Positions 1 through 62,847 of a stretch of 64,000 bases of DNA are shown one piece after another; position 1 is the stretch's first letter, and every line of letters starts with the position of its first letter. The notes below the pieces were generated by a model, which saw only the letters and a program-made list of their open reading frames with translations, made no database searches and was not told the origin of the DNA. Origin of the DNA: a virus (lineage: Duplodnaviria > Caudoviricetes); IMG/VR virus record IMGVR_UViG_3300042257_000126, positions 1-64,000 of that record; one strand, 5' to 3'. The position numbers and the translations under genes were made by a program.

Positions 1-84
1 AACGTTCCGCAGGTAAATGCCGTGCCTGCACAATTTTCAAATCACGGCACAAACTTCAACAGCATGGCATTTGACCTGCTGTTA
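1..84. repeat. attC-like hairpin 0 (cut by window edge)
   Basis: AAC-GTTCC-GCAGGTAAATGCC...GGCATTTGACCTGC-T-GTTA, extra G in right arm. Confidence 0.8.
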
Positions 85-100
85 TAAAACGTTTTTAGCA

Positions 101-331
101 ATGGAAATTGAAGCGACAAATCTCAGAAAGGACTATAAATTTTTAACAATAAAATCACATTTTGGGAAATACTTGGTTGAGTATTATTCAAATAGAGTTC
201 CGGGACATAGGTCAGAAATATTTGCAACAATGCAAGCAGCAAAAAGATTTTGCACAATGGATATTCAAAACCCAAAATGGGGTAAAGATTATCCTAAATT
301 ACAGTGGCGTGCGAAAGCAAATGTTTTATAA
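101..331 (+). CDS. Cassette hypothetical protein (alternative start at 17, inside the hairpin)
   Basis: ORF fills cassette 81-332; its stop TAA is part of the TAAC core. Confidence 0.7.
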   Translation: MEIEATNLRKDYKFLTIKSHFGKYLVEYYSNRVPGHRSEIFATMQAAKRFCTMDIQNPKWGKDYPKLQWRAKANVL

Positions 332-455
332 CGTAAAAGCATTGCCGTCAGTGGCGGTTTAGAAGTACAAAAGTTTAATACCAGCACAAATGATTGATAG
401 AAGTACAAAAGTTGAAATAAAGAACGTCACCCGCCATTGCGGCAATGCAGTGTTA
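329..455. repeat. attC-like hairpin 1
   Basis: TAAC-GTAAAA-GCATTGCCGTCAGTGGCGG...CCGCCATTGCGGCAATGC-AGT-GTTA. Confidence 0.85.
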
Positions 456-1103
456 GGTGCAGTGCCTTATTCGGAAGTTTATTTGATGGACTGTGTCGCT
501 GGTTTGCGGCATTATCCAGACAATTATTTTGATTTGGCAGTAGTTGACCCGCCTTACGGGATAGGGATTGATGGGCAAAAGCAAAGTATTAATTTGAACA
601 ACCCGAAAGCAAACAGAAAAGAGCATAAATTCAGGGGATGGGATAATGATATACCTTCAAATGAATACTTTGATGAGCTGTGGCGTGTATCTAAAAATCA
701 AATCATTTGGGGTGCGAATTACTTTGTAGAACATTTAAACAAAGGCACAAAAGGGTGGATTGTCTGGTATAAAGGTCAAGAAGGATTAACAATGAGTGAT
801 GCAGAATTAGCATACAGTAGTTTTGATTGTGCCACAAGGGTTGTTAAAATAAACAGGGTTGAACTATTGAAGGACGGAACAATACACCCAACACAAAAGC
901 CTATAAAACTATATGATTGGATTTATGCTAATTATGCAAAGCAAGGAGATTTGATTTTAGATACACATTGCGGAAGCCAAGCCAGTCGAATTGCAGCGGA
1001 TAAGGCGGGTCTTAACTTTGTCGGATTTGAAATTGATGAGGAATATTTTAATGCCGCAAACAAGCGTTTTGATAACTTCAAATCGCAGACGAGGCTGTTT
1101 TAG
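390..1103 (+). CDS. DNA N6-adenine/N4-cytosine methyltransferase (beta-type motif order)
   Basis: DPPY catalytic motif, HPTQKP, ILDTHCGS SAM-binding variant, GFEID. Confidence 0.93.
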   Translation: MIDRSTKVEIKNVTRHCGNAVLGAVPYSEVYLMDCVAGLRHYPDNYFDLAVVDPPYGIGIDGQKQSINLNNPKANRKEHKFRGWDNDIPSNEYFDELWRVSKNQIIWGANYFVEHLNKGTKGWIVWYKGQEGLTMSDAELAYSSFDCATRVVKINRVELLKDGTIHPTQKPIKLYDWIYANYAKQGDLILDTHCGSQASRIAADKAGLNFVGFEIDEEYFNAANKRFDNFKSQTRLF

Positions 1104-1113
1104 GCATTGCACC

Positions 1114-1241
1114 TAACGTTTGACGGTAAACTCTCGTTGCCGTTCTAAATACGAGAGATAAATTTTCAAATTACTACAAAATGAAAAACGAAGCAGAAAA
1201 TATTGATAAACAACAAGGCGATGGAGTTTTACCGTGTGTTA
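1114..1241. repeat. attC-like hairpin 2
   Basis: TAAC-GTTTG-ACGGTAAACTC...GAGTTTTACCGT-GT-GTTA. Confidence 0.85.
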
Positions 1242-1387
1242 GCCGTAGTTTTATTGGCTTATTCATGCACTATGATAATGGCGATATGGTAAACATTCAA
1301 GATTTACCAAAACCAGAATACGAGAAATTTCTTGAACAAATGAACGCATTAAGAATGGCATACATCACCTTGGTTAGTCGTCCGTAA
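1181..1387 (+). CDS. Small cassette hypothetical protein
   Basis: 68 aa ORF starting inside hairpin 2 and ending at the cassette inverted repeat. Confidence 0.7.
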   Translation: MKNEAENIDKQQGDGVLPCVSRSFIGLFMHYDNGDMVNIQDLPKPEYEKFLEQMNALRMAYITLVSRP

Positions 1388-1395
1388 ATTACGGC

Positions 1396-1442
1396 TAACG
1401 GTGAGTGTAACAGGTCGTTTTAATGCCTGTTACACATTGTTA
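1396..1442. repeat. attC-like hairpin 3 (47 bp)
   Basis: TAAC-GGTGA-GTGTAACAGG...CCTGTTACAC-ATT-GTTA. Confidence 0.85.
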
Positions 1443-1474
1443 GGTGTAGTATGAACGGATTAAAAGAATGAAAG

Positions 1475-2059
1475 ATGAAAAAATATAAAACGATAATAGC
1501 AGACCCACCTTGGAAATATAAAGGGCGTGGTCCAGCATCAGCAAAAGAACACCGACCTAATAGTTACGGTGCTGCTCCAAGTAGTGAAGAACGCTATGGG
1601 GCAATGAGTATGGAAGAACTGAAACAACTGCCAATTAAGAATATGATTGAAGATAAAGCACACCTTTATTTGTGGGTAACAAACGCATTTATAGAACGTG
1701 GATGGCAGTTGTGTAAGGATTGGGGATTTGAGCCAAAAACAGTGGTTACGTGGGGGAAACTTAGAAAAGCAGACGGGCAACCAAGTATGAAAACAGGCTA
1801 CTATTTTAGAGGTGCGACTGAACACTTCATATTTGCAACCAAAGGTAACCTTAGATTAAAAGACAAAGCGGTTGAGCCAACACTGTTTTTGAGCGAAAGG
1901 CTGCCGCATAGCGTAAAGCCTGAATGGTTCTACGACCTTGTAGATAGGTGTTCTTTTGCAGACAAGTTAGAACTATTTTCGAGGCGTGAACGAAATGGGT
2001 GGGACTGCTGGGGCAACCAAGCTGAAAATAGCATTGACCTTAGTGAATATTACACCTAA
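1475..2059 (+). CDS. MT-A70 family adenine methyltransferase
   Basis: IIADPPW, LYLWVTN, WGF, TEH, HSVKP, LELFSR, GWDCWGNQ motifs. Confidence 0.93.
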   Translation: MKKYKTIIADPPWKYKGRGPASAKEHRPNSYGAAPSSEERYGAMSMEELKQLPIKNMIEDKAHLYLWVTNAFIERGWQLCKDWGFEPKTVVTWGKLRKADGQPSMKTGYYFRGATEHFIFATKGNLRLKDKAVEPTLFLSERLPHSVKPEWFYDLVDRCSFADKLELFSRRERNGWDCWGNQAENSIDLSEYYT

Positions 2060-2182
2060 CGTTTTGCGTGTATAAGAAGTGGTGGATTTAGAACCCGAAA
2101 CTTTCAATACAGCACTACACTTAATTTGAAAAACGAATGTTGAATATACCACTGAACACGCCATTTTTTATACACGCTGTTA
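2057..2182. repeat. attC-like hairpin 4
   Basis: TAAC-GTTTT-GCGTGTATAAGAAGTGG...CCATTTTTTATACACGC-T-GTTA. Confidence 0.85.
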
Positions 2183-2275
2183 TAAGCTGGTGCGGTTTAT
2201 TATCACAGAACTTGAATCGAAGAACGAAACCTTTTTCTTTTCTTTTTTGTGCAGTGGGAAAATAAAAATTTAATA

Positions 2276-2602
2276 ATGAAAGATAGAGAATATGTAACAA
2301 CTAATGGCAGAGCAGTATTTTACGCTGCTATGTGGAACGATTTAAGACAAGCTGCAATGGATAAAGGTTGGGCATTAGCCTTACACGGAAGCCTTGCAAG
2401 TGATATGGATATTATGGCGATGCCTTGGACAAAAGAAGCCACAAATGATAATGAAATGATAGAAGCAATTAAAAACTGTTTTACTGATTGCAGTAAAATA
2501 AAGGTGGAAATATCTAAAATGCCTAACAACAGGATTGTTTACACACTTTCAATATTTGGGGATTTTTATTTGGACATAAATATTATAAATAACAAAGGAT
2601 GA
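2276..2602 (+). CDS. Hypothetical protein, possible minimal nucleotidyltransferase fold
   Basis: ALHGSLASDMDI resembles the hGS..DhD Pol-beta NTase motif; ATG at 2276 follows an A-rich leader. Confidence 0.55.
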   Translation: MKDREYVTTNGRAVFYAAMWNDLRQAAMDKGWALALHGSLASDMDIMAMPWTKEATNDNEMIEAIKNCFTDCSKIKVEISKMPNNRIVYTLSIFGDFYLDINIINNKG

Positions 2603-3381
2603 ATATAGATTTAAGACAAGGAGAAGCACTCGCGGGAATGCAGAAAATGGTAGATGAAGGTATTGTTGTTGATATGATACTTGCAGACTTACCCTATGGA
2701 ACAACGAGTAATAAATGGGATGCAGTAATTCCGTTTGAACCAATGTGGGAACTTTATTGGAAGCTACTTAAACCAACAGGTGTAATTGTATTAACTGCTT
2801 CTCAGCCATTTTCAAGTGCCTTGATTATGAGCCAACCAAAATATTTTAAACACGAATGGATATGGTTGAAAAACAGAGGCAGTAATTTTGCAAATACAGT
2901 AAGAGAACCAATGAAGGAACACGAACATGTGTTGGTTTTTAGCAAGGGTAAATGGACTTACAATAAGCAAATGCAAGAAAGAACTGGTGCTGGACTTGAT
3001 AGAGTAAAATATAATGTGAAGTTTGAAAGTAAGTCTGAAAATTACAGAGAATTTGAAGGTAGGGTTGAAAACCAACTATCTGATTTGAGAGTTCCTTCAA
3101 GTTGGCAAAAATTCAATACCGATACAAGTGGATTGCACCCAACAATTAAACCTATACCGCTTTTTGAGTATATGATTAAGACATACACAAATGAAGGTGA
3201 AACGGTGTTGGATAACACAATGGGAAGTGGAACAACTGCAATAGCCTGTATGAATTTGAATAGAAATTTCATAGGTATTGAACTTGAAGAAAAATATTTT
3301 CAGGTAGCAAAAAAGAGGGTGGAAGAAAAAAGAAAAGAAAAAGATTTACAAGCAGGAACTCTATTCGGAGACGAAATGTAG
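2599..3381 (+). CDS. DNA N6-adenine/N4-cytosine methyltransferase
   Basis: DLPY, HPTIKP, VLDNTMGSGTT, GIEL motifs. Confidence 0.93.
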   Translation: MNIDLRQGEALAGMQKMVDEGIVVDMILADLPYGTTSNKWDAVIPFEPMWELYWKLLKPTGVIVLTASQPFSSALIMSQPKYFKHEWIWLKNRGSNFANTVREPMKEHEHVLVFSKGKWTYNKQMQERTGAGLDRVKYNVKFESKSENYREFEGRVENQLSDLRVPSSWQKFNTDTSGLHPTIKPIPLFEYMIKTYTNEGETVLDNTMGSGTTAIACMNLNRNFIGIELEEKYFQVAKKRVEEKRKEKDLQAGTLFGDEM

Positions 3382-3391
3382 CACTTGCTTA

Positions 3392-3517
3392 TAACGTATG
3401 GCGGTATGGTGTCGTAGCGGATTAGATGCACAAGCCTATCGAACTGTACGGAAGTAAATAGAAAGCAAAAAATATTGAATTAAACACTAAAACCGCTATG
3501 CACTATACCACGTGTTG
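3392..3517. repeat. attC-like hairpin 5
   Basis: TAAC-GTATGGC-GGTATGGTGTCGTAGCGG...CCGCTATGCACTATACC-ACGT-GTTG. Confidence 0.8.
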
Positions 3518-3539
3518 TAAACTGTAAATACGGTAAAAT

Positions 3540-4172
3540 ATGAACGAAATGAACTTAATAAATACAGACTGCTTACAAGCCTTACGAGAATGTAAAGACA
3601 AGCAATTCAACTTGGCATTAACTGACCCACCTTATAATGTAGGCAGAAAGTATAATGAATATGACGATACACGCCAAGCGAAAGAATACGAAAAATGGTG
3701 TAAAGATTGGTTAAATGAGCTTTTGAGAACTTGTGAAACTGTTGTAATGACTGTTGGTTATAAAAACCTAAAGTTTTGGATTAACCAAGACCCAAAACAT
3801 ATGATGATATGGCACAAACCAAACCAAAACAGTCCAAGCCCTTTAGGTGGATTTAATGCTTATGAACCTGTATTGTTTTGGGGTAAAAATCAAAAGCGAA
3901 TTGGACACGATATATTCAAAACAAATATTGCTATGCAAGAAGAAGCTGCTTGGCACGATTGCCCGAAACACCTGCCAAGTTGGACTAAATTACTTGATAT
4001 GATAGCTGATGAAGGAATGAATATAGTGGACCCGTTTTTAGGAAGCGGAACGACTGCAATTGCTTGTCATAAACTTAAAATGAATTTTACTGGATATGAA
4101 ATTGATAAGACGTATTATGATAAGGCTTGTAAGCGGATTAAACACTACACTTCGCAAATGGCACTATGGTAG
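3540..4172 (+). CDS. DNA N6-adenine/N4-cytosine methyltransferase
   Basis: TDPPY, HDCPK, VDPFLGSGTT, GYEID motifs. Confidence 0.93.
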   Translation: MNEMNLINTDCLQALRECKDKQFNLALTDPPYNVGRKYNEYDDTRQAKEYEKWCKDWLNELLRTCETVVMTVGYKNLKFWINQDPKHMMIWHKPNQNSPSPLGGFNAYEPVLFWGKNQKRIGHDIFKTNIAMQEEAAWHDCPKHLPSWTKLLDMIADEGMNIVDPFLGSGTTAIACHKLKMNFTGYEIDKTYYDKACKRIKHYTSQMALW

Positions 4173-4185
4173 TATTTATTGTTTA

Positions 4186-4279
4186 CAACGTAGATGCGGT
4201 ATGGTTAGTAAAGCCACCCACTATCGCAGCCTATGAAATACAAACTTTAATTGGCTTTATTAACTATGACCGCTTGTTA
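4186..4279. repeat. attC-like hairpin 6
   Basis: CAAC-GTAGAT-GCGGTATGGTTAGTAAAGCCA...TGGCTTTATTAACTATGACCGC-TT-GTTA, extra G in right arm. Confidence 0.85.
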
Positions 4280-4301
4280 GCGGTTGTTATTTACTTTACT
4301 T

Positions 4302-4511
4302 ATGGATAAATTAATAGCAGAAATAGGCGATACAATAAGTTGGACATTTGATGATAAGCCAACAGAGAGCGAAATGTTTAGAGGTAAAACATTTAGTGCA
4401 GAAGTGGCAATGGTAGATGTTGAAGAAAGGCACTACGGTGTATATGCGGATTACGGACAAGATTTAATACCATTTGAGCACGCCACTATTCAGCGGACTA
4501 ATAACCGCTAA
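4302..4511 (+). CDS. Small cassette hypothetical protein
   Basis: ORF fills cassette 4276-4512; its stop is part of the TAAC core. Confidence 0.7.
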   Translation: MDKLIAEIGDTISWTFDDKPTESEMFRGKTFSAEVAMVDVEERHYGVYADYGQDLIPFEHATIQRTNNR

Positions 4512-4544
4512 CTATGTTGTATATGTAATGCACACCCGTGCAAA
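4509..4544. repeat. Array-terminal conserved site, copy 1 (candidate attI-like site)
   Basis: TAACTATGTTGTATATGTAATGCACACCCGTGCAAA, 32/36 identical to 62746-62781. Confidence 0.7.
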
Positions 4545-4558
4545 CAAAACAAATAATT

Positions 4559-4789
4559 ATGAAACAACAACTTACACCAACAGAAATCAGGAAAATTCAA
4601 AATATATGTTTTCAAAATCCGGTCAGGGCTTGCACAGTTGCGCAAGTAATTTTAGATACGTGCCAGGTTGTGAGTTGTTCTACTTATGCAAGGTTGCACA
4701 AAAAAAGTAAGCGGACGGTTTTGTATCAATCAAAACACATGACCGGAGTGAATGTTGAGGACAGAAAGTTTATTGCATTATGTTCTTAA
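4559..4789 (+). CDS. Hypothetical protein, possibly DNA-binding
   Basis: Basic ORF after an A-rich leader; STYARLHKKSKRTV is HTH-like (weak). Confidence 0.55.
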   Translation: MKQQLTPTEIRKIQNICFQNPVRACTVAQVILDTCQVVSCSTYARLHKKSKRTVLYQSKHMTGVNVEDRKFIALCS

Positions 4790-5349
4790 AAGACAAACAA
4801 AACGATTTATTGACAAAAATGTCGGTGTTAAGAAATGGGTACTACACGAACTCAAACGGTAACACGGCACAGGGCAAACTGTGGCTGCTTGGCTACAATG
4901 ATTGCTGGCTATCTGGGTGTGAACTCAGGACGGCAAAAACAGGAATTCATTATATTGTGATCGAGTTAAAGCGAAAACCTGTTAACGTGGATGGGCTTAA
5001 AACAAAAGTGTCATTCGTGCCATACACCGATATTTTGTTCACGAAAGACCTAAAGAATTTCCTTGCAGGATTTGGTCACGCGCTTAAACCAAAGCCACCT
5101 GACATGAGCGAGAACACGTATATAAGGCACGTAAAGAACCGGGTGGATACTTTGATAGGTCAGAACATAAAAGTCGTTGTAACGTACTCCTACGAACCCA
5201 GACGGGACAAATACGGGTATCAGGTGGAGCGGAATAAGTACTACGACGAAAAAGAAAAAGTGTTTGATTGGCGTATGAATGTGTTTTATAACATAAACAG
5301 GGATTTGGATTGGAGGAAGATTTCAAGTGTTTTTGTTAAAGAATTGTAA
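4780..5349 (+). CDS. Hypothetical protein
   Basis: 189 aa ORF in the operon. Confidence 0.7.
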   Translation: MFLKDKQNDLLTKMSVLRNGYYTNSNGNTAQGKLWLLGYNDCWLSGCELRTAKTGIHYIVIELKRKPVNVDGLKTKVSFVPYTDILFTKDLKNFLAGFGHALKPKPPDMSENTYIRHVKNRVDTLIGQNIKVVVTYSYEPRRDKYGYQVERNKYYDEKEKVFDWRMNVFYNINRDLDWRKISSVFVKEL

Positions 5350-5395
5350 CGTACTTTGTGTTTTATTTATTATCTTTACAGAAAAATTTTAAATT

Positions 5396-5692
5396 ATGGG
5401 TTGGGGAACAATTTTAAAAGAAGTTTACATAAACAGGATTGTGCCAGAAGATGTTGAACACCTTATGGAAGAAGAAGAATCCTTAATAACAATGTATCGT
5501 GATGACTTGATGATGTTGGCGGCAGCCACACCGAGAGAAGTAAACGATGGCGACAGCGTTGAACCGTGGGAAGATTACGCATCAAGACGTGTTGGAGAAG
5601 CGATAGATGGATTAATGGAATGTGCCGTAAGGCGATACCAGTTTAATCTTATAAAGGAAGCAGACCCAAACGATATTGTGCATGATGCGTAA
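5396..5692 (+). CDS. Hypothetical protein
   Basis: Acidic 98 aa ORF with a good AT-rich leader. Confidence 0.7.
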   Translation: MGWGTILKEVYINRIVPEDVEHLMEEEESLITMYRDDLMMLAAATPREVNDGDSVEPWEDYASRRVGEAIDGLMECAVRRYQFNLIKEADPNDIVHDA

Positions 5693-10101: not shown

Positions 10102-10505
10102 GAGAAATAAAATTTAGGGGATTGACAGATGAAGGAAAGTGGAAAAAAGGAGAATGGGTTTACGGTGATTTATTTCATGCTGCAATAAATGACATTCAAA
10201 TATTTCCAATTGATTCGGATGATAGTTTTGCTGTTATTCCCGAAACAGTAGGTGAATATACAGGACTTAAAGACAAAAACGGGACTGAAATTTATGAGGG
10301 GGATATAGTAAAAGTGGATAAATTATATCCATTCACAGAAAAGATTTGTGTGATGGAGTGGTGTGAATGGCAAGTTGAGTTCGACTGGATGAAAAATAAG
10401 GCCGGATGGAATTTAAGAAAAATTTCAAATGGTTCTATGCAAATATGGACTAATAAAACAATTGAAGTTATCGGCAACATTCACCAAAACCCGGAATTGT
10501 TATGA
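10098..10505 (+). CDS. YopX family protein
   Basis: MREIKFRG...EYTGLKDKNGTEIYEGDIV...EVIGNIHQNPELL. Confidence 0.92.
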   Translation: MREIKFRGLTDEGKWKKGEWVYGDLFHAAINDIQIFPIDSDDSFAVIPETVGEYTGLKDKNGTEIYEGDIVKVDKLYPFTEKICVMEWCEWQVEFDWMKNKAGWNLRKISNGSMQIWTNKTIEVIGNIHQNPELL

Positions 10506-45259: not shown

Positions 45260-45318
45260 CAAAGATACGCATGAAAGGGTACAACACAAAAAAAGCCCCA
45301 CTCCAACGAGCAGGGCTT
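45260..45318 (-). promoter_or_regulatory. Terminator (45288-45318) followed by a TATCTTTG -7 box (45260-45267)
   Basis: Hairpin plus T tract, then the Bacteroidota -7 consensus upstream of ATG 45242. Confidence 0.7.
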
Positions 45319-49536: not shown

Positions 49537-51927
49537 TTACACGACTTCCTCCTGAGTTGGCATCACGCGCTCAGGCTCTTGAATAAGTCCCTGTTCCTGT
49601 TGTGGTTGCTGTGGCTGTTCAGGCTGAACATTACCCAACATAGTCAACGCTTCCTGCCATGTCATTTGTCCCTCAGCTACCGCCTTCTCTATCACATCAG
49701 CACGTCCTCTTGCGTTTTCAACAGCAATATCAGCTTGCATTTTATCCATTACCTCCTGACGTTTGGCTGCTGAATTGACCTGTGCTGTTTGCTGCTGTTG
49801 TTGGCTGTTCATCTGAATGAATCTCATTTCTTTTGCTTCTGCTTCTTCTTTTGCTTTTCTGTTTGCAAAGTCCAATAACAAGGCAACACGTTTCAAACTT
49901 GCACCTGAGTTAATCATTGAGAAGAACCTCACAGCATCAGCCTCCGTAATACCGACCTTGCCGTCCCTACCGTTTTTCAACGACAGCATAATCATTTCTT
50001 TCAGTTCAGCTACGTCTTGTTCGGTTGGACGTGCGTGTGTGCGTATTCCATATTTAATATCGCCCCCCTCAGCGATTTTAAGCAGTTCTAAGGCACTTTC
50101 TCCTACCACATCGACATAAGCATCATACGCACGCTTATCGTGTCTTATAACGTGCTGTAAACGCAAACACATAGCTCTGGCTGTATCTGATTTAATGTCG
50201 TTGGCTTTCTTTAATACATTGTATAAAACATTGTTTGTTCCCGAAATAGCGTATTCGGTTACAGCTTTCCCTATACCGGGATCGGGCTGTGAACCCAACG
50301 CCACAGGATTAATTCCAGTCAACTGTTCAATCTGGTTCATGGCTAAGTCCATAACCTGAACTGATTCGGCTATCACAGCACCAGCACCACCGGGCAACTG
50401 CTCTATCGGTCTGGTTATCATTCCGGGGTTTGGACGTCCTGCTACATCGGTAGGCTTGAAGAACAATGTTCCTGTTTGCCTCCAAAATCTTAATACCTCT
50501 TTGGGCGACATTTTCTTACCACCCATGCTAAGGTTTGACACAGCATCCATGTTAATAGCATAGCCATTCATAGCCGCCATACTTATACCCTGCTGTAACC
50601 TCATCCATGCGTTCATATATTGGTCTAACGCCGGGATCAGTCGTGGAATAATAGGACGGCCTGATACTTTTACCATGTGCAACGGAAGTACTGGTTCTGA
50701 CATTCCATCTCTACCCTGAAATTCACACTTACCGTAATCGTAAACTATATCGCTTCCGATAACCCAACTTACTTCTCTGACTGTTTTGATTCGCGTTTGG
50801 AGTAACTTTTCTCTTTCTTTTGATTTGTATTTTGCATCAACATCTTTTGTTCTTACTTTTCCCTGACGGTTCTTGTATTCTTTTTCGTGTTTAAAATCTA
50901 CGTCAATCCACTTCACTACAAACACGGGAACGGTGAAGGCATCATAACCTCTATTGTACACCTGCTGTCCGTCTTTGTTCTGTGCGTTCCAATCTCCAAT
51001 ATTAGGGTTGCCGTAAAGATTTGAAAATGTTTTAGCAATGCCATACAACTCTTTATCCTTAAATCCCATTCTACGAAGTGTAGAAAGTTTTTCCCACTTC
51101 ACATAAAATCCATAGTCGGGATTGCGGTAAGAGGATTCCTGCGTAAACTGAACACCTGCGTATTGTGCGTCCCTGTATTCAGTCTTAACGTGTCCTGTTG
51201 TTTTGTCGTACACATCTTCCACAACAGCGAACCCAACGGTAACCAAGTCAAACAAAACTTTTTCAAGTATGTGTTCATCCCAATAAGAATGTTCAAACGC
51301 GAATTTCAACAGGCGTTCCATCACTTCTTCGTAGCCCAGCTTAAACCCACCTTCGGCTTCATACAGGTTCAGTTCCTCTATGCTACGCGGCGTGTAACCA
51401 ACGTCCTGCTGAGGAAGTGCCATCATTGCCCTGAGTGCATTGAATTCTTTTCGGAACTTACCGTCAACGTATGTTCCCCATTTAAGTTCTTCACGTCTTG
51501 CACCGCTGTAACGGTCAGTAGCATCAACGGAAACCCTGTTTACCAGTTTGGATAACGCCCCTATAATCGCATCCATAACACGTGGCATTGGGGATTGTAT
51601 ATCAAAATTTAGATTGGCATACGCATTTCTGCGTGATTTGCGTGAAGTGTCCTGACCCATGTTTTCCAGCACGTTCCCGGTTTGCTCTTTGCCGAAAAAG
51701 GTATCTTTGTACTTTTCCTGCGACTGCATACCGAGAGCGTAGTTGCGATTGGTGGTAACTGAATCGTACCAATCGTGATCTACATACGTCCCTCCACGTG
51801 AAAACTGTGAGTAAACATATTGTGCAACTTCCAATGCGTATTCGCGTGAGTCCTTATCACGCTTCGCATCTTCCCTGTCGGGCATTGTATATGTCCCGTG
51901 TGCATACTTGCTTGCTTCAAATAACAT
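49537..51927 (-). CDS. Portal protein
   Basis: 796 aa; NRNYALGMQSQEKYK, VSVDATD, IEQLTGIN, Gln-rich coiled C-terminus, as in crAss-like portals. Confidence 0.85.
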   Translation of the reverse strand: MLFEASKYAHGTYTMPDREDAKRDKDSREYALEVAQYVYSQFSRGGTYVDHDWYDSVTTNRNYALGMQSQEKYKDTFFGKEQTGNVLENMGQDTSRKSRRNAYANLNFDIQSPMPRVMDAIIGALSKLVNRVSVDATDRYSGARREELKWGTYVDGKFRKEFNALRAMMALPQQDVGYTPRSIEELNLYEAEGGFKLGYEEVMERLLKFAFEHSYWDEHILEKVLFDLVTVGFAVVEDVYDKTTGHVKTEYRDAQYAGVQFTQESSYRNPDYGFYVKWEKLSTLRRMGFKDKELYGIAKTFSNLYGNPNIGDWNAQNKDGQQVYNRGYDAFTVPVFVVKWIDVDFKHEKEYKNRQGKVRTKDVDAKYKSKEREKLLQTRIKTVREVSWVIGSDIVYDYGKCEFQGRDGMSEPVLPLHMVKVSGRPIIPRLIPALDQYMNAWMRLQQGISMAAMNGYAINMDAVSNLSMGGKKMSPKEVLRFWRQTGTLFFKPTDVAGRPNPGMITRPIEQLPGGAGAVIAESVQVMDLAMNQIEQLTGINPVALGSQPDPGIGKAVTEYAISGTNNVLYNVLKKANDIKSDTARAMCLRLQHVIRHDKRAYDAYVDVVGESALELLKIAEGGDIKYGIRTHARPTEQDVAELKEMIMLSLKNGRDGKVGITEADAVRFFSMINSGASLKRVALLLDFANRKAKEEAEAKEMRFIQMNSQQQQQTAQVNSAAKRQEVMDKMQADIAVENARGRADVIEKAVAEGQMTWQEALTMLGNVQPEQPQQPQQEQGLIQEPERVMPTQEEVV

Positions 51928-52005: not shown

Positions 52006-52176
52006 ATGAGGTGTAAATATGAACAAATCTGAATCTCGTTACAAATATAAGCAATTAATCGTTATGATCCAAATTTTAACACGTTGTATATGCATTTTTT
52101 TCAAAATGCACATACAACAACGTTAGCGCAAATATTGAAAAGAAAACACGAGGATAATGCTTAAAATGATTTAAAA

Positions 52177-52596
52177 ATGGATACACAAAAAATTGAACAA
52201 GTCTTTTCAATGGCAAATAAAATAGCCTTTCATCCGACAAGAAATGTTCAAAAAGAACCATCTGTTGTCGGATTGGAATTTCACAAAAACTTATTAGGAG
52301 AAGCAATAGATTGCTATTCAAACTTAAAAAATGAATTAACACATAGAGACTTGGTGTTTACGTTTAAAAGAATTAAAAACGGAATAAAAGCATCAATAAT
52401 ATCAAAATCAAAAGGAGAAGTAATGTCATTTAGAATAAGTCAAGAAAAAGGAATGACTGAATTTGCCAAAGAAACAAATCCAAATCATCCTTTCGCTTTT
52501 GTAATATTACAGCCATCTAACGACGGATATCATCTTGTTCCTGATTCAAATCCTTATCAACCGATTGTTTTCGACAAATATGTTTTGATAGAATAA
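52177..52596 (+). CDS. Hypothetical protein inside cassette
   Basis: 139 aa A-rich ORF, antisense to the late operon. Confidence 0.65.
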   Translation: MDTQKIEQVFSMANKIAFHPTRNVQKEPSVVGLEFHKNLLGEAIDCYSNLKNELTHRDLVFTFKRIKNGIKASIISKSKGEVMSFRISQEKGMTEFAKETNPNHPFAFVILQPSNDGYHLVPDSNPYQPIVFDKYVLIE

Positions 52597-52669
52597 ACTT
52601 TCCATTAGGTGATTCTTTTACCAGAATATCTCTACCGTTTTTAGCAAATATAAAATCTACTCTTTTCAT
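52517..52669 (-). CDS. Small hypothetical protein (50 aa)
   Basis: MKRVDFIFAKNGRDILVKESPNGKF..., convergent with and overlapping 52177-52596. Confidence 0.4.
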   Translation of the reverse strand: MKRVDFIFAKNGRDILVKESPNGKFILSKHICRKQSVDKDLNQEQDDIRR

Positions 52670-52716
52670 ATAACAAAAATACAACACAAAAAAGAAACCG
52701 ATAAAAAAGCAGTAAA

Positions 52717-53088
52717 ATGGGACTATTCAGTTTTAACGAAGATGTATTAACAGAATTATATTTTCACGATACAGGAACAAGTATAAAACAAACAGTAGTA
52801 GGCAAAAACAAGGAAGAACTAATTGCCCAAAACGCAATTACTTTTATCGTCCACTACTTTTCAATTGTAAAAAACAATGAAGAAAAAATGGAATTACAAC
52901 TACAAAGAGATTATAAAACAAGTCACCTGTGTAAACGATTTCGCCTCATTGCTTTTATATTGTTCCATATACGCCAAAAACCAATAGTAAGATTAACAAA
53001 ACAGAGCGCATATAACACAGCAATATTAATTGCGTCTTTAGCGATGATCATGATAATGATAATCACAATCATTATGACGATTGAATAG
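52717..53088 (+). CDS. Hypothetical protein with a C-terminal TM segment
   Basis: 123 aa ORF with a hydrophobic tail. Confidence 0.6.
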   Translation: MGLFSFNEDVLTELYFHDTGTSIKQTVVGKNKEELIAQNAITFIVHYFSIVKNNEEKMELQLQRDYKTSHLCKRFRLIAFILFHIRQKPIVRLTKQSAYNTAILIASLAMIMIMIITIIMTIE

Positions 53089-53114
53089 ATAGACTTTTTT
53101 ATTGCAGTAATCAT
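52923..53114 (-). CDS. Small hydrophobic protein
   Basis: 63 aa, AT-rich leader, overlaps the 3' end of 52717-53088. Confidence 0.45.
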   Translation of the reverse strand: MITAIKKSIYSIVIMIVIIIIMIIAKDAINIAVLYALCFVNLTIGFWRIWNNIKAMRRNRLHR

Positions 53115-53136
53115 TAACTTTTAAATTTTATAAATT

Positions 53137-53364
53137 ATGAAACTTAATTACACCAAAAATCTCGACGAACTAACCGAAAAAGAATTAATGCAATTTATAA
53201 TCGGAACACAAACGTTAATTCTTCGCAGACTTGATGACATTGAATCAAAAATCAAAGACCGCAAAGAGCAAACACACCAAGAAACTGTTGACGAAATACT
53301 ATTCAAAGTAGAATCAAACATTGACAGAATAAACGAAACACTTGAAAGAAAAGCTACAAATTAA
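53137..53364 (+). CDS. Small coiled-coil protein
   Basis: 75 aa with a good leader. Confidence 0.6.
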   Translation: MKLNYTKNLDELTEKELMQFIIGTQTLILRRLDDIESKIKDRKEQTHQETVDEILFKVESNIDRINETLERKATN

Positions 53365-53551
53365 TGCTGTATCGCATCTTGACCATATAACAATCAGCAG
53401 TGGGATGGTCGTCTGCTTTTGGATAGGCAGTAATCATATTAATTTTAGCATCTACAATTTTTCGGTTTAGCAAATCAACTGTTTGTTCAATGTCCGCCTT
53501 GATGTTATCAATTTTTTCTTGCGTTAATTGGTCAATGACACTTACTGACAT
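53354..53551 (-). CDS. Small hypothetical protein
   Basis: ATG 53551 just inside the cassette boundary. Confidence 0.55.
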   Translation of the reverse strand: MSVSVIDQLTQEKIDNIKADIEQTVDLLNRKIVDAKINMITAYPKADDHPTADCYMVKMRYSINL

Positions 53552-53707
53552 ATTACTTATTTTTAAAAACAAGCAAATTGACTAAAAAGACAAAATACTT
53601 GCGCTAACACTGTGCAAATGCCACTCGCCTCTTAGCTTTTACGGCAGTTCCATCTCGTTAGCTGGTTATGCGCCTCTAATTATTGTTGACGGAAAAGCGA
53701 GAGGCAC

Positions 53708-53908
53708 TTGCACTTATCCGTCAAAAAGCACACAGGTGCAAAATGGGATAGAGACATGTCAACATATATTGAATATGTCAACATGAGAATGAACAATCAG
53801 AATGCACAAATCAATGAAGCTCTTCTAAACGATTACAGACTACTAATAAACGAGTTGTTTGCAAAAATAGAAGAGCTTCAAAAACAAATAATCAGGACAA
53901 AGGGATAG
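53708..53908 (+). CDS. Small coiled-coil protein (start uncertain)
   Basis: ORF convergent with 53892-54083. Confidence 0.45.
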   Translation: MHLSVKKHTGAKWDRDMSTYIEYVNMRMNNQNAQINEALLNDYRLLINELFAKIEELQKQIIRTKG

Positions 53909-54083
53909 TGTCATCATATAGCACTGCGCCTCTGTCAAACTGAGGAGACACGTACAGCTTGCCGTTCTTGTTTGAAATTTTTACCATATCAACCAATGGG
54001 AGCTTACGAAAGTTGTCAATCAATAAATTAAGCTCTTTGTTCAATTCATCTCTTCTTTGAAAAACGTAGTCGTATTGAGACAT
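53892..54083 (-). CDS. Small hypothetical protein
   Basis: ATG about 25 bp after the hairpin GTTA, AT-rich leader. Confidence 0.6.
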   Translation of the reverse strand: MSQYDYVFQRRDELNKELNLLIDNFRKLPLVDMVKISNKNGKLYVSPQFDRGAVLYDDTIPLS

Positions 54084-54254
54084 GACTAATAATTTAAAAC
54101 CGCCCTATAACACTCTGTATATAACACGCTTGGTGTCGTAGTACGGTGATAATACTTTATTTTAATTAACTCTTGCGGTTCGTATGAAATGATACAGATT
54201 TTAATACAAGCGCATTACATACAGTAACCGTTACAAATATACAAAAAAAATCAC

Positions 54255-56567
54255 TTACGTCCAAATAAAATCATTGTAATCGTAATCGAAATCCTCAATT
54301 CTTTTCAAAATATCTGTATAAGCACTTTTCGCCCCAAGCAATGCGACACCCCCTGCTGCCAACAAGTCATAATGCCTCATTTCTTCCATACCCCGAATAT
54401 CCTTTAATTCTTTCAATAATTCCATGTGCTGTTCAACACACGACCTGTTTTCAATATAATCACGCCACAACGCAAACATTTCCTGCTTGCTGCGTTCTAA
54501 CGAATCAACACCCGGCTTTTCTTTTACCCTACCTGTATATTTATCTATGTCATACAATAAGTAACCACCAAAACGGTGTCTAATCACATATTCATACGTT
54601 GCAGGAATATTGGTTTCAGGATATATAGACGCTCCAAAAAATATGGCAGCCTTAATCACATCTTCGTTGTACTCATCCGTGTTAGCAGCCCGAAAACGAT
54701 AAGTCAGCACGAACTTGTAAGTATCCCACTTTTCGGCAGATTTATTTCCGTCAATAGCCTTGTCGTAATTCCTTAAAATGGCAATACCGCCATCACTAAG
54801 TCTGGACTTTTTACCCAACTTCATTCCAACCTTTTCGTCTTGTTTGTTGCCAAACTTAAACGGGTCTGCCCCTAACGTGTACATTCCGGGATACATTGGT
54901 CGCCACATATCCACATTTTTCCCTTCAAAGGTACTGTAATGAGAAACACGAATCTTTCTGTTAGACACAGAATCAGGCGGCATTTCGGATATGGTAAACC
55001 TGCCGTGTTCCTCATCCTGAACAAATTCAACATCACCGCCAAATATTCCACCAACCCACTCCAACCGTCCTTTTAAAACGTCGCTGTGTCGTCTTAGTCT
55101 ATGAATAGCTGCATCTATCTTTTCAATGTTAAACCCAATAGAACCAGCTTCCCCAAGCCAACAATCTTCGTATTTTAACGGGAATAATTTCTTTTCTTCC
55201 CTTAACAGCCTTTGCGATTCAGAACTGTTATCACGCTGCAACGAATCTCGCTTGCCACGCAAATATTCTTCTGCTGTTTGCGTGAATCCCTCTGCACGCT
55301 GGTAATCTTCAATTTTGTCTTTTACGCTAAAACCATACGAATCAATAAACCCATCTAACCCCTCTGTGGCGGGAATAAATAACCTGAATATACCCGAATA
55401 AGTCTGTCCACTTGACTTAATCCTTCTGTAAAAATTAGATGTATTAGACAACGCCCGATAATACGCCGCACCTTCCGACACCTCAGACACTGTACTCGGA
55501 GCATCGCAATATCCATGTATCAACCGTCCATTTCCCTGAGACAGCGTGTTTTTTGACACCTCGTGGCGCATGGCTATATCAACCTCCGATGTTTTTCCAC
55601 TTTCTTCTATAAGAAGATACATCATCTTTTTGGAATCGTAGAATTTTTCAGAAGCCGTAGTAGCATAAGTACACTGTGTCTGTAATGCCACATCACCATA
55701 CTCGTTTTTCCCTACATTAAATTTCAAAGCATCTGATGTCCTTCCAGAAGTAGTGTTCGGCTTTAACCATATAGGCCAACTGTCAAACGCTGGCATCAAC
55801 AAGTTGTCAAAAGTCTCTTTGGCGTTTTGGTTGGAAAAACTTTGAATACCCATCCCGTGATTCAACATAGAACGGGTAACATATTCAAGTCCATTAGATA
55901 TACCTTTGTTGGTATTACCTGAACGACGATTTTTGGGTTGCATTTTACCATAACACACACGACGACCAACGTCAATCATTTTGTAACTGCCGTCTGGTTC
56001 AGCTATCGCATATCCATCTTCATCCAGCCGCTCAAATGTTTCGGTAGTAGTCAAACAGTAATGGGCAAAAATATATTCCTTCCAATCCCTGTGGCGAAAG
56101 TCGGGTCTATTCGTACCACTGTCGGTATTCATCGTATGAACATTCAAATAGAAAAAATGCCACGGTGAAATCCAATATGGCTTTCCTTTTATAAACGTCC
56201 AATAGCCATTCACCCGGAACCACCAAAACCTCCGTATAAACGCTATCTCTTTCTTCATAGACTTGTGCCGCTCCCTCAACAACTCCCAGAACTTCTTCTG
56301 AATCTTCAACAGCGTTACAACGTTATTTTTGTTCGTGCTTAAATCCTCTTTGGTTTTCAACACGGCCTCGGCCTCTAAGTCGATTAATTTACGCGGTATT
56401 TCCAAACGCTGAAAACGCTGTTCCTCTGGTGGCAGTCCATACCCGTCAATCAAATGTAGCGGTGGTGGTTTAGGCAAACTCAATACGATTGGACGTAGAT
56501 CAGGGTCGTTGTCGTTTAATACAACATACTTGTCTGCTTCTTCGTATTCGTATGGTAGTTTCTTCAT
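54255..56567 (-). CDS. terL: Terminase large subunit
   Basis: 770 aa; KNRRSGNT Walker A-like, LLIEESGK Walker B, LGADPF nuclease motif, PETN, YDLLAAGG. Confidence 0.88.
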   Translation of the reverse strand: MKKLPYEYEEADKYVVLNDNDPDLRPIVLSLPKPPPLHLIDGYGLPPEEQRFQRLEIPRKLIDLEAEAVLKTKEDLSTNKNNVVTLLKIQKKFWELLRERHKSMKKEIAFIRRFWWFRVNGYWTFIKGKPYWISPWHFFYLNVHTMNTDSGTNRPDFRHRDWKEYIFAHYCLTTTETFERLDEDGYAIAEPDGSYKMIDVGRRVCYGKMQPKNRRSGNTNKGISNGLEYVTRSMLNHGMGIQSFSNQNAKETFDNLLMPAFDSWPIWLKPNTTSGRTSDALKFNVGKNEYGDVALQTQCTYATTASEKFYDSKKMMYLLIEESGKTSEVDIAMRHEVSKNTLSQGNGRLIHGYCDAPSTVSEVSEGAAYYRALSNTSNFYRRIKSSGQTYSGIFRLFIPATEGLDGFIDSYGFSVKDKIEDYQRAEGFTQTAEEYLRGKRDSLQRDNSSESQRLLREEKKLFPLKYEDCWLGEAGSIGFNIEKIDAAIHRLRRHSDVLKGRLEWVGGIFGGDVEFVQDEEHGRFTISEMPPDSVSNRKIRVSHYSTFEGKNVDMWRPMYPGMYTLGADPFKFGNKQDEKVGMKLGKKSRLSDGGIAILRNYDKAIDGNKSAEKWDTYKFVLTYRFRAANTDEYNEDVIKAAIFFGASIYPETNIPATYEYVIRHRFGGYLLYDIDKYTGRVKEKPGVDSLERSKQEMFALWRDYIENRSCVEQHMELLKELKDIRGMEEMRHYDLLAAGGVALLGAKSAYTDILKRIEDFDYDYNDFIWT

Positions 56568-62349: not shown

Positions 62350-62781
62350 TAAAGGTACTGCCGTATGAGACGTGCCGAGTAATTAATAACTAAAAAAAAA
62401 AATAATATGAAAACAAATTGTGGAAGTTCCCCTGATAGTTCAACAAAGCCGGAAGTCATGGATTATGACGGCATGTTAACAACTGGCTTTTATTGGCATC
62501 CGAGATACAGCCAGACCGATGAGCCAGACAAACAAGGACGGTGGTCGAGGCTTTGCTTTTATCGTAAATTTCTAATTGCATGGATAAGTAGGCAACAAGT
62601 GAACGAAACTGTAATGTATGTTGTAACTGATTTTTTCCCGACAAATGGAAATAGTAACCCATGCTTTGTGGAAGCTACCGAAGATTTTGAAAAAGCAAAA
62701 GAAGGGGTGGAAAAACGTTTCAACGAGTTTCTTAAAGCTTGTTGTTAACTATGTTGTATGTGTAATGCGCACTTGTGCAAA
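62350..62781 (+). mobile_element. Third cassette locus: hairpin 62350-62478, one cassette 62475-62749, terminal site 62746-62781
   Basis: TGCCGTATGA...TTATGACGGCA-T-GTTA; GTTAACAACTGGCTTT / AAAGCTTGTTGTTAAC; 36 bp site shared with 4509. Confidence 0.8.
62407..62748 (+). CDS. Cassette hypothetical protein
   Basis: Starts inside the hairpin and stops at the TAAC core. Confidence 0.7.
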   Translation: MKTNCGSSPDSSTKPEVMDYDGMLTTGFYWHPRYSQTDEPDKQGRWSRLCFYRKFLIAWISRQQVNETVMYVVTDFFPTNGNSNPCFVEATEDFEKAKEGVEKRFNEFLKACC

Positions 62782-62847
62782 TGTTTTTATGTGGTAAAAC
62801 ATGAAAAAAGTTTTCTGTCGTTGTGGAATGTTTTGTATATTTGTAAA

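Follow-up and report, generated by a model that had tools for sequence, protein, structure and literature searches.

A probable orphan integron-like cassette array carrying DNA methyltransferases in a tailed phage of Bacteroidota

The window analysed here is the first 64,000 nucleotides (nt) of IMG/VR virus record IMGVR_UViG_3300042257_000126, a linear contig of 73,569 nt (G000) with a CheckV completeness of 92%. Its left end, from 1 to 4512, carries seven consecutive gene cassettes, each bracketed by its own pair of inverted repeats and separated from the next by a hairpin-forming segment running from AAC to GTT, and it is likely that we see here what survives of an orphan integron-like cassette array, carried by a tailed phage of Bacteroidota. 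Position 1 of the contig is itself the AAC of a recombination site, so that the array is cut by the contig start. The source is a tailed phage by its predicted genes for the large terminase subunit (54255-56567, minus strand) and the portal protein (49537-51927, minus strand). Its host is probably a member of the Bacteroidota: the methyltransferases of the window resemble counterparts in Flavobacterium and Polaribacter phages, and the bacterial contigs that contain the short hairpin of cassette 4, one of the site types of the window, are nearly all from Bacteroidota.

A preliminary description of this DNA, made from the letters alone, listed seven inverted-repeat pairs (81/332, 452/1117, 1238/1399, 1439/2060, 2179/3395, 3514/4189 and 4276/4512), and all seven were recovered at those positions. 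The arms are 14-18 nt long; every left arm begins with GTT and every right arm ends with AAC. Counted from GTT or AAC, position 11 is G in the left arm opposite T in the right arm in all seven pairs, and position 10 is T opposite T in two of them. T precedes GTT in all seven units, and G follows six of the seven AACs, the exception being the last, which is followed by an attI-like dock (Table 1). Under a strict rule (GTT.../...AAC arms of at least 12 nt, mismatches only at positions 10-11, G opposite T at position 11) the 73.6-kb genome contains 11 pairs: eight on the plus strand, namely the seven of the array and one at 62475-62749, and three on the minus strand, where that at 52122-53608 is convincing and the other two look like chance. 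When the genome was shuffled 200 times, the same rule gave a mean of 0.61 pairs and a maximum of 3 over both strands.

The segments between the units (1-83, 330-454, 1115-1240, 1397-1441, 2058-2181, 3393-3516 and 4187-4278) are also as first described, except that they measure 45-126 nt with AAC and GTT included, rather than 47-128 bp. Each contains an inner stem that starts 1-9 nt in from the borders and frequently has a bulge of a single base. All eight plus-strand units have AAC and GTT without exception, and the full GTTRRRY core is present in two of the eight left arms (452 and 1439). The aligned long hairpins have a mean column identity of 43% and nothing in common beyond AAC-G and T-GTT (two of the ten ranges, from L001 and L040, stand off register). 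The sites are thus conserved in structure rather than in sequence. Their topology is attC-like: imperfect palindromes, single-base bulges in the inner stem, and an unpaired G(T).../...T spacer beside AAC/GTT. A search of window 1-5400 against Rfam, which contains no attC model, returned only two chance-level matches.

Related phages were compared with the window for cassette change at AAC/GTT, as the preliminary description had proposed. They differ by whole cassettes, with breakpoints exactly after AAC in four independent comparisons (relative G001, the MT-A70 cassette, viral contig L209, and contigs from other runs). Relative G001 is 96-98% identical to the window from 4505 onward, contains none of window 1-4512 and has a different last cassette, the break falling between ...CTAAC and TATGTTG. 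The MT-A70 methyltransferase of cassette 4 recurs, with 89-94% protein identity, in viral contigs L005, L006 and L007, and is the sole protein that the window phage has in common with them. At the right end of this cassette homology stops exactly after ...CCTAAC, and three different sequences continue; at the left end it includes the upstream short hairpin, with compensatory changes in the stem, and stops at the AAC of the preceding unit. Cassette 6 is found with 99.6% identity over window 3391-4190 in the 37-kb contig L209, with both breaks after AAC, while contig L210 holds relatives of cassette 6, the cassette 4 hairpin, the cassette 2 methyltransferase and the cassette 6 hairpin in another order. 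These alignments show that single cassettes have spread between unrelated phages. On the MT-A70, cassette 6 and G001 comparisons, the mobile unit consists of hairpin, GTT-arm, gene or genes, and arm-AAC, in that order, with a crossover probably within or right beside AAC. The bracketing repeats of the earlier account stand, but the unit that moves takes in the hairpin upstream of the gene and not the downstream one; likewise, the cassettes are mostly of a single gene as had been claimed, except for cassette 5, which has two.

Population data were provided by Logan contigs of four other runs aligned to window 1-5400; these are assemblies, which cannot show circles, strand or depth, and gaps in run coverage (for example 3601-4500 in X7 and X10) carry no information. 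In run X7 an 11.4-kb contig meets the backbone at 4508 with the end of the G001-type cassette, and in X3 a contig meets it at 4509 with a third sequence, so that both have another last cassette in place of cassette 7. The ends of X10 contigs fall at 333, 1117 and 2061, each at most one base from a cassette end, and one such contig spans 1-333; the X10 joints at 712-948, 2199-3375 and 3423-3493, with sides of 21-23 nt, may belong to other organisms. Contig starts give two more clues: that of G000 falls exactly at an AAC, and in the 70-kb viral contig L007 the first 98 nt (1-98) repeat 1478-1575, the end of the third cassette, and then enter the hairpin of the first cassette. The L007 junction at AAC would fit a three-cassette circle or a tandem copy.

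The presumed circular junctions were rebuilt by coordinates, each from the cassette's own arm-AAC, hairpin and own GTT-arm, and then folded. All seven fold into one long imperfect hairpin, and in all seven the plus strand is more stable than the minus strand, by 1.5-6.4 kcal/mol. Part of this asymmetry arises because the G.T wobble on the plus strand becomes A.C on the minus strand. Folding with the cassette's own arms was superior to folding in the array context in six cases of six. The circularised cassette would have an outer stem of about 11 bp or longer ending at AAC/GTT, followed by a small unpaired spacer (G(T)... / ...T) and then by an inner stem with its loop. This modelled topology matches that of an integron attC site, except that the outer stem is longer. 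We infer that movement involves plus-strand folding, cleavage at AAC and circular intermediates. In such a scheme the plus strand would fold, favoured by the conserved G.T wobble at arm position 11; a tyrosine recombinase would cut within or right beside AAC; and cassettes would be excised as circles and inserted at the dock at 4513-4558, after the last AAC. No hairpin follows that AAC (4512), and the right end is therefore taken to be the insertion end.

The enzyme would most likely be a compact XerA-like recombinase of about 270 amino acids, whose gene in many other phages stands 33-124 nt beyond the last AAC. A gapped pattern of 24 specified bases for the cassette 4 short hairpin matched 34 bacterial contigs, of which 32 are Bacteroidota by record title and the others are a Cloacimonadota and a Kordiimonadaceae metagenome-assembled genome, together with 40 viral contigs. 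The flanks of these hairpins keep A12-T11...AAC and GTT...G11-T12. Clustering of the open reading frames (ORFs) at these loci gave a tyrosine recombinase of about 270 amino acids, 0.4-1.5 kb from the site in four viral loci, with fragments in two bacterial ones. A profile search with the recombinase reached 105 viral contigs, from which 80 loci were kept. Across them, strict pairs number 226 upstream of the recombinase gene on the same strand, 3 upstream on the opposite strand, 6 downstream on the same strand and none downstream on the opposite strand; the shuffled loci contain 8 over both strands. At least one strict pair lies upstream in 63 of the 67 loci that have at least 500 bp there, and in 43 of these 63 the last AAC stands 33-124 nt before the start codon. 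With no rule imposed at position 11, it is G.T in 221 of 266 pairs and A.C in one, and T stands before GTT in 238 of the 266. The longest ORF is on the site strand in 212 of 236 units of recombinase-linked arrays. The dock spacers of the family begin with TAT in 32 of 43 cases and are rich in ATATAT. The window dock resembles these docks, which separate array from recombinase gene, and especially those of L141 and L157, which share TATATGTAATG. Arrays of this kind are associated with the compact XerA-like recombinase throughout the family.

Among NCBIfam models, archaeal XerA fits this recombinase best, with 172-196 bits where the cut-off is 220. On the integron-integrase model TIGR02249 it scores 150-162 bits against a cut-off of 265, the best stretch covering 3-181 of 315 model positions. 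Compared with solved structures, it aligns along its full length with XerA (4a8e), and with IntI4 (2a3v) only over 18-178 against 17-181. A length of 266-271 amino acids would leave no room for the IntI-specific insertion. The bacterial loci L196, L197, L205 and L206 (genomes G007 and G008) have a cassette unit on the opposite strand, beginning 50-95 nt past the 3' end of a relative of the recombinase gene, and G008 has three units within 18 kb; the phage loci are laid out differently. Contig G002, on which L007 lies, encodes a divergent tyrosine recombinase of 303 amino acids near its other end.

No such gene was found in the phage itself. Six-frame searches of the 73.6-kb contig G000 detected no tyrosine recombinase (PF00589, E<=1), and nothing for TnpB, Y1 transposase or serine recombinase (PF07282, PF01797 and PF00239); the compact-recombinase profile A3 also found nothing in it at E<=1. 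Pfam, PHROGs and NCBIfam give no match for the ORFs that follow the dock (4559-4789 and 4780-5349), and the small ORFs after both docks of the window are unrelated to the compact recombinase. The first of these ORFs (4559-4789) was tried as a recombinase relative and rejected at a probability of 1%; it was also tried as a helix-turn-helix gene in common with the small ORF after the L007 array, and the two did not align. The array is accordingly an orphan, with the proviso that the gene could lie in the 8% or so of the genome that the contig lacks. The recombinase gene being absent here, the enzyme would have to act on the window array in trans, supplied by a co-infecting phage or by the host.

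Integrons are the textbook bacterial gene-capture system and are defined by one integrase family. The classical attC site has the cores R'' RYYYAAC and R' GTTRRRY in an imperfect palindrome of about 55-141 nt with extrahelical bases and an unpaired spacer; the cassette boundary falls at G|TT (AA|C on the other strand), and the bases that open a cassette are complementary to R'' of its own attC. The integrase IntI has an additional domain around patch III, and the gene of each cassette, read from the attI side, precedes its attC site. To our knowledge, integrons are regarded as nearly absent from Bacteroidota. The window array is like a classical integron in its single-gene cassettes, its structure-conserved folded sites, the crossover at AAC/GTT, the complementary cassette ends and the folded-strand asymmetry and, as seen in related phages, in having one insertion site beside a tyrosine recombinase gene. 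Its cassette boundaries are those of classical cassettes, with breaks after AAC, but the complementarity of the cassette ends extends to 14-18 nt. It differs in that the outer stem is 14-18 bp instead of 7 bp, one site is shorter than the classical range, and the strand is marked by the G.T wobble rather than (only) by extrahelical bases. Polarity is also reversed: the site lies at the 5' end of the gene and the hairpin travels with the downstream gene. In the nomenclature of integrons the window plus strand corresponds to the 'bottom' one, and its genes run antisense to those of the classical layout. The recombinase of related arrays, of about 270 amino acids and closest to archaeal XerA (4a8e), falls under the cut-off of the IntI model and is not an IntI on that measure, and its gene lies downstream of the array in the same direction as the cassette genes, unlike in classical integrons. 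The integron-like logic recognised in the preliminary description (structured sites, complementary ends) is borne out, also by the AAC breakpoints in relatives; classical polarity and association with a classical integrase are not.

A second point of comparison is the pdif modules of Acinetobacter plasmids, which use XerC/XerD-dependent, 28-bp double-stranded sites with a 6-bp spacer and inverted arms of about 11 bp. As in these modules, small gene modules would be bracketed by inverted recombinase-binding arms, with an Xer-type enzyme supplied in trans. We know of no cassette-specific complementary ends and no dock in pdif modules, and the window has hairpins of 45-126 nt instead.

Arrays of this kind have already been reported in part. 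Qi et al. 2023 (Front Microbiol, PMC9892861) described 17 phage CALINs, as attC clusters with no integron integrase are called, and one of them is in Polaribacter phage P12002L. The CALIN of this phage has two methyltransferases as cargo and two predicted attC sites, one found by HattCI and one by HattCI plus Infernal, and the phage has no integrase. The P12002L region (our locus L040) is like the window in its AAC-hairpin-GTT sites, its cassette-specific arms and a short hairpin with the loop TCGTTTTAATG, and its gp38 methyltransferase cassette is homologous to window 2599-3381. Qi et al. treat these sites as classical attC, and the accessible sections of the paper say nothing of long cassette-specific arms, a G.T marker, reversed polarity, a dock or any recombinase other than IntI. 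A search of the open-access literature (subscription journals and supplements lay outside its scope) found no description of such arrays, in Bacteroidota or in phages of that phylum, together with a recombinase other than IntI and, in the text it covered, none of long cassette-specific arms, G.T marker, reversed polarity or dock for these arrays. The array of the window is genuine, and a new example of a kind that the literature already records in part.

The published reading suggests the foremost alternative, that the array is the remnant of a classical integron, a CALIN of ordinary attC sites moved by a host IntI. The AAC/GTT cores, the 45-126-nt imperfect palindromes and the complementary cassette ends all agree with this, as do the attC sites predicted in the homologous P12002L array, of which IntI1 recombined one of two tested in the reported assays (PMC9892861). 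Nevertheless we regard it as unlikely. The full GTTRRRY is present in just two of eight left arms, gene polarity is reversed, and the arms are 14-18 nt rather than 7; TIGR02249, with its cut-off of 265, gives 150-162 bits for the recombinase that adjoins arrays in 63 of 67 viral loci, and the alignment of this enzyme with IntI4 ends at residue 181. The second P12002L site was inert with IntI1 (PMC9892861, available text), and the IntegronFinder 2.0 paper (PMC9024848), in its available part, gives a complete integron in Bacteroidetes only for Salinibacter ruber.

A further alternative, with a smaller chance still, would dispense with a dedicated recombinase: the hairpins would be promoter or terminator units, and the genes would be shuffled by homologous or illegitimate recombination between similar hairpins, in the manner proposed for the promoter-early stem-loop (PeSL) cassettes of T4-type phages. 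Those cassettes, as far as described in the available text of PMC2839356 and PMC4122927, are like the array in their small accessory genes, hyperplastic regions, stem-loop separators and modular exchange. The short hairpin type is near-identical in many phages and could support homologous exchange, some genes start in hairpin loops, suggesting a role in expression, and the phage has exonuclease or recombination genes (phrog_284, phrog_149/434). PeSLs, however, are sequence-conserved and thought to be exchanged by homologous recombination (same sources), whereas the window has divergent sites, exact breaks after AAC and, in its family, a linked tyrosine recombinase. The seven array sites share almost no sequence, with their 43% mean column identity, and shuffling of this sort leaves unexplained the complementary, co-varying cassette ends 160-1200 nt apart, the strand-asymmetric G.T (221 of 266 pairs) and the fixed position of the recombinase beside the arrays. 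That each unit is instead a small transposon with 14-18-nt terminal inverted repeats, inserted serially into hairpin targets by a transposase in trans, is very improbable: every unit does have its own GTT...AAC terminal inverted repeats, and a relative carries a TnpB-like gene at the place of a second array, but the mobile unit takes in the hairpin before the gene and stops at AAC, and so is not bounded by the two repeats, there are no target-site duplications, no transposase families were found in the contig, and the arrays are linked to a tyrosine recombinase.

Several points weigh against an orphan integron-like array served by the compact recombinase. The link to that enzyme is an association in other genomes, and its high-scoring relatives in five bacterial genomes have no array upstream, three of the ten loci having a unit on the opposite strand past the 3' end of the gene. 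This phage has no recombinase, so that activity would need a putative helper in trans, and a 92%-complete contig could miss the gene. Recombination was not seen directly: the contig-level data show alternative junctions and no excised-circle junction for this phage. The inter-unit hairpins, folded alone in the array context, have z-scores from -5.0 to +0.1, and only some beat their shuffles. When the P12002L sites were tested in E. coli with IntI1, recombination with attI1 was obtained for attC2 but not for attC1 (PMC9892861), and enzymes of the IntI type may therefore play a part. Finally, the anti-restriction role of the methyltransferases comes from family assignment only.

That four of the seven cassettes carry methyltransferases, as was noted in the preliminary description, agrees with Pfam, which identifies N6_N4_Mtase at 390-1103, 2599-3381 and 3540-4172 and MT-A70 at 1475-2059. 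From these assignments we infer that the four orphan DNA methyltransferases would form a changeable anti-restriction kit, which probably protects the phage from host restriction enzymes.

It is tempting to see here a second, phylum-wide integron-like system of Bacteroidota and their phages, and on balance we favour this wider proposal, with less assurance than the reading of the window itself. Such a system would comprise a compact XerA-like integrase without the IntI domain, 11-bp Xer-type arms, a G.T strand marker, reversed polarity in which the site gives the 5' end of the gene, and a sequence-conserved dock; it would maintain a shared market of anti-restriction methyltransferases, with orphan arrays serviced in trans by recombinases of co-infecting phages or hosts. 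The array and its relatives suggest that Bacteroidota and their phages work the integron solution, with its folded sites on one strand, its cassette circles and its single dock, through another and smaller recombinase, and that virulent phages trade DNA methyltransferases through such cassettes. If true, this would account for fast change of restriction protection and for assembly breaks in these regions, and the compact recombinase-and-site pair would be open to direct testing. The window alone is a smaller gain: it offers a clean orphan array of seven cassettes, for which comparison with relatives has given exact breakpoints.

The coordinates of the array, the docks and a second, smaller array are collected in Table 1.

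Table 1. Features of the cassette arrays and docks in the window.
Feature	Position	Strand	Details
First recombination site	1-83	+	AAC 1-3, inner hairpin, GTT 81-83; fold -16.1 kcal/mol, z -2.25
Cassette 1	4-332	+	Hairpin 4-80; GTT-arm 81-94; ORF 101-331 (76 amino acids, no family); arm-AAC 319-332
Cassette 2	333-1117	+	Hairpin 333-451; GTT-arm 452-467; N6_N4 DNA methyltransferase; arm-AAC 1102-1117
Cassette 2 methyltransferase ORF	390-1103	+	Probable start 486
Cassette 3	1118-1399	+	Hairpin 1118-1237; GTT-arm 1238-1251; small ORF 1181-1387; arm-AAC 1386-1399
Cassette 4	1400-2060	+	Short hairpin 1400-1438; GTT-arm 1439-1452; MT-A70 methyltransferase 1475-2059; arm-AAC 2047-2060
Cassette 5	2061-3395	+	Hairpin 2061-2178; GTT-arm 2179-2193; two genes; arm-AAC 3381-3395
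Cassette 5 genes	2249-2602; 2599-3381	+	ORF of 117 amino acids (phrog_31354, unknown function); N6_N4 methyltransferase
Cassette 6	3396-4189	+	Hairpin 3396-3513; GTT-arm 3514-3531; N6_N4 methyltransferase 3540-4172; arm-AAC 4172-4189
Cassette 7 (last, beside insertion end)	4190-4512	+	Hairpin 4190-4275; GTT-arm 4276-4289; ORF 4284-4511 (no family); arm-AAC 4499-4512
attI-like dock (putative)	4513-4558	+	TATGTTGTATATGTAATGCACAC..., directly after last AAC, no hairpin following
Second, smaller array	52064-54232	-	Between portal and terminase genes, opposite orientation; includes a degenerate unit
Second-array terminal hairpin site	52078-52124	-	Fold of 52064-52135, z -4.25
Second-array intact unit	52122-53608	-	1.5 kb, several small ORFs without PHROG match; G.T at position 11 read on minus strand
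Second-array hairpin	53609-53727	-	Stem in 53597-53740
Second-array doubtful hairpin	54109-54232	-	Hairpin found by stem scan, not by fold of 54098-54244
Lone unit	62475-62749	+	GTT-arm 62475-62490; arm-AAC 62734-62749; inside ORF 62407-62748; second dock copy adjoins

Within the main array, the short hairpin of cassette 4 has the conserved loop TCGTTTTAATG and a z-score of -5.0, and the Pfam match of its MT-A70 gene is at 4e-29. The methyltransferase of cassette 5 is homologous, together with its arms, to P12002L gp38. In the same cassette a 22-nt inverted repeat, 95% complementary, lies at 2227-2248 in the leader and at 3326-3347 in the 3' part of the methyltransferase gene; P12002L has both halves as well. 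In runs X3, X6 and X7, contigs depart from the window sequence at 2297 and return to it at 3312-3468, which suggests variant cassettes with common ends but different content.

The ORF of cassette 3 starts inside the hairpin loop, and the same layout is found in P12002L gp37. Three ORFs (window 1181-1387, window 62407-62748 and L040 4872-5162) start in a hairpin loop and read through the GTT-arm, and in two such loop-starting cassette ORFs the arm encodes V-(S/G)-(R/S)-S-F. The loops of two otherwise unrelated long hairpins (window 380-420 and L007 125-160) share AGCACAAATG..TTGA..AGTACAAA, which may be a promoter or protein-binding element.

A second copy of the dock lies at 62750-62787 (a motif search gave two matches with none expected), next to the lone unit, for which folding gave no clear inner hairpin upstream. 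The docks at 4513 and 62750 both begin TATGTTGTAT(A/G)TGTAATG. In IMG/VR the exact dock motif had no carrier other than the close relative G001.

The second array is lacking in G001 from 52064 on. At its place, the last 1,073 nt of the reverse-complemented G001 contig (L002-L004) contain a frame that resembles TnpB / IS605 OrfB by eye and runs off the contig end.

Two further differences from G001 are not linked to sites: a 395-nt gene at window 10107-10502 is not present in G001, and at window 45285-45296 G001 has an insertion of about 880 nt between repeats of AACACAAAGATAC, which we take to be reverse-strand Bacteroidota promoters from their likeness to the motif TAnnTTTG. A circular contig was considered, but its ends do not join with confidence: the final 127 nt (73443-73569) repeat the internal stretch 69592-69718, both beyond the window, and not the contig start. 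The repeat consists of a leader and the first 24 codons of an ORF, and looks like an assembly break.

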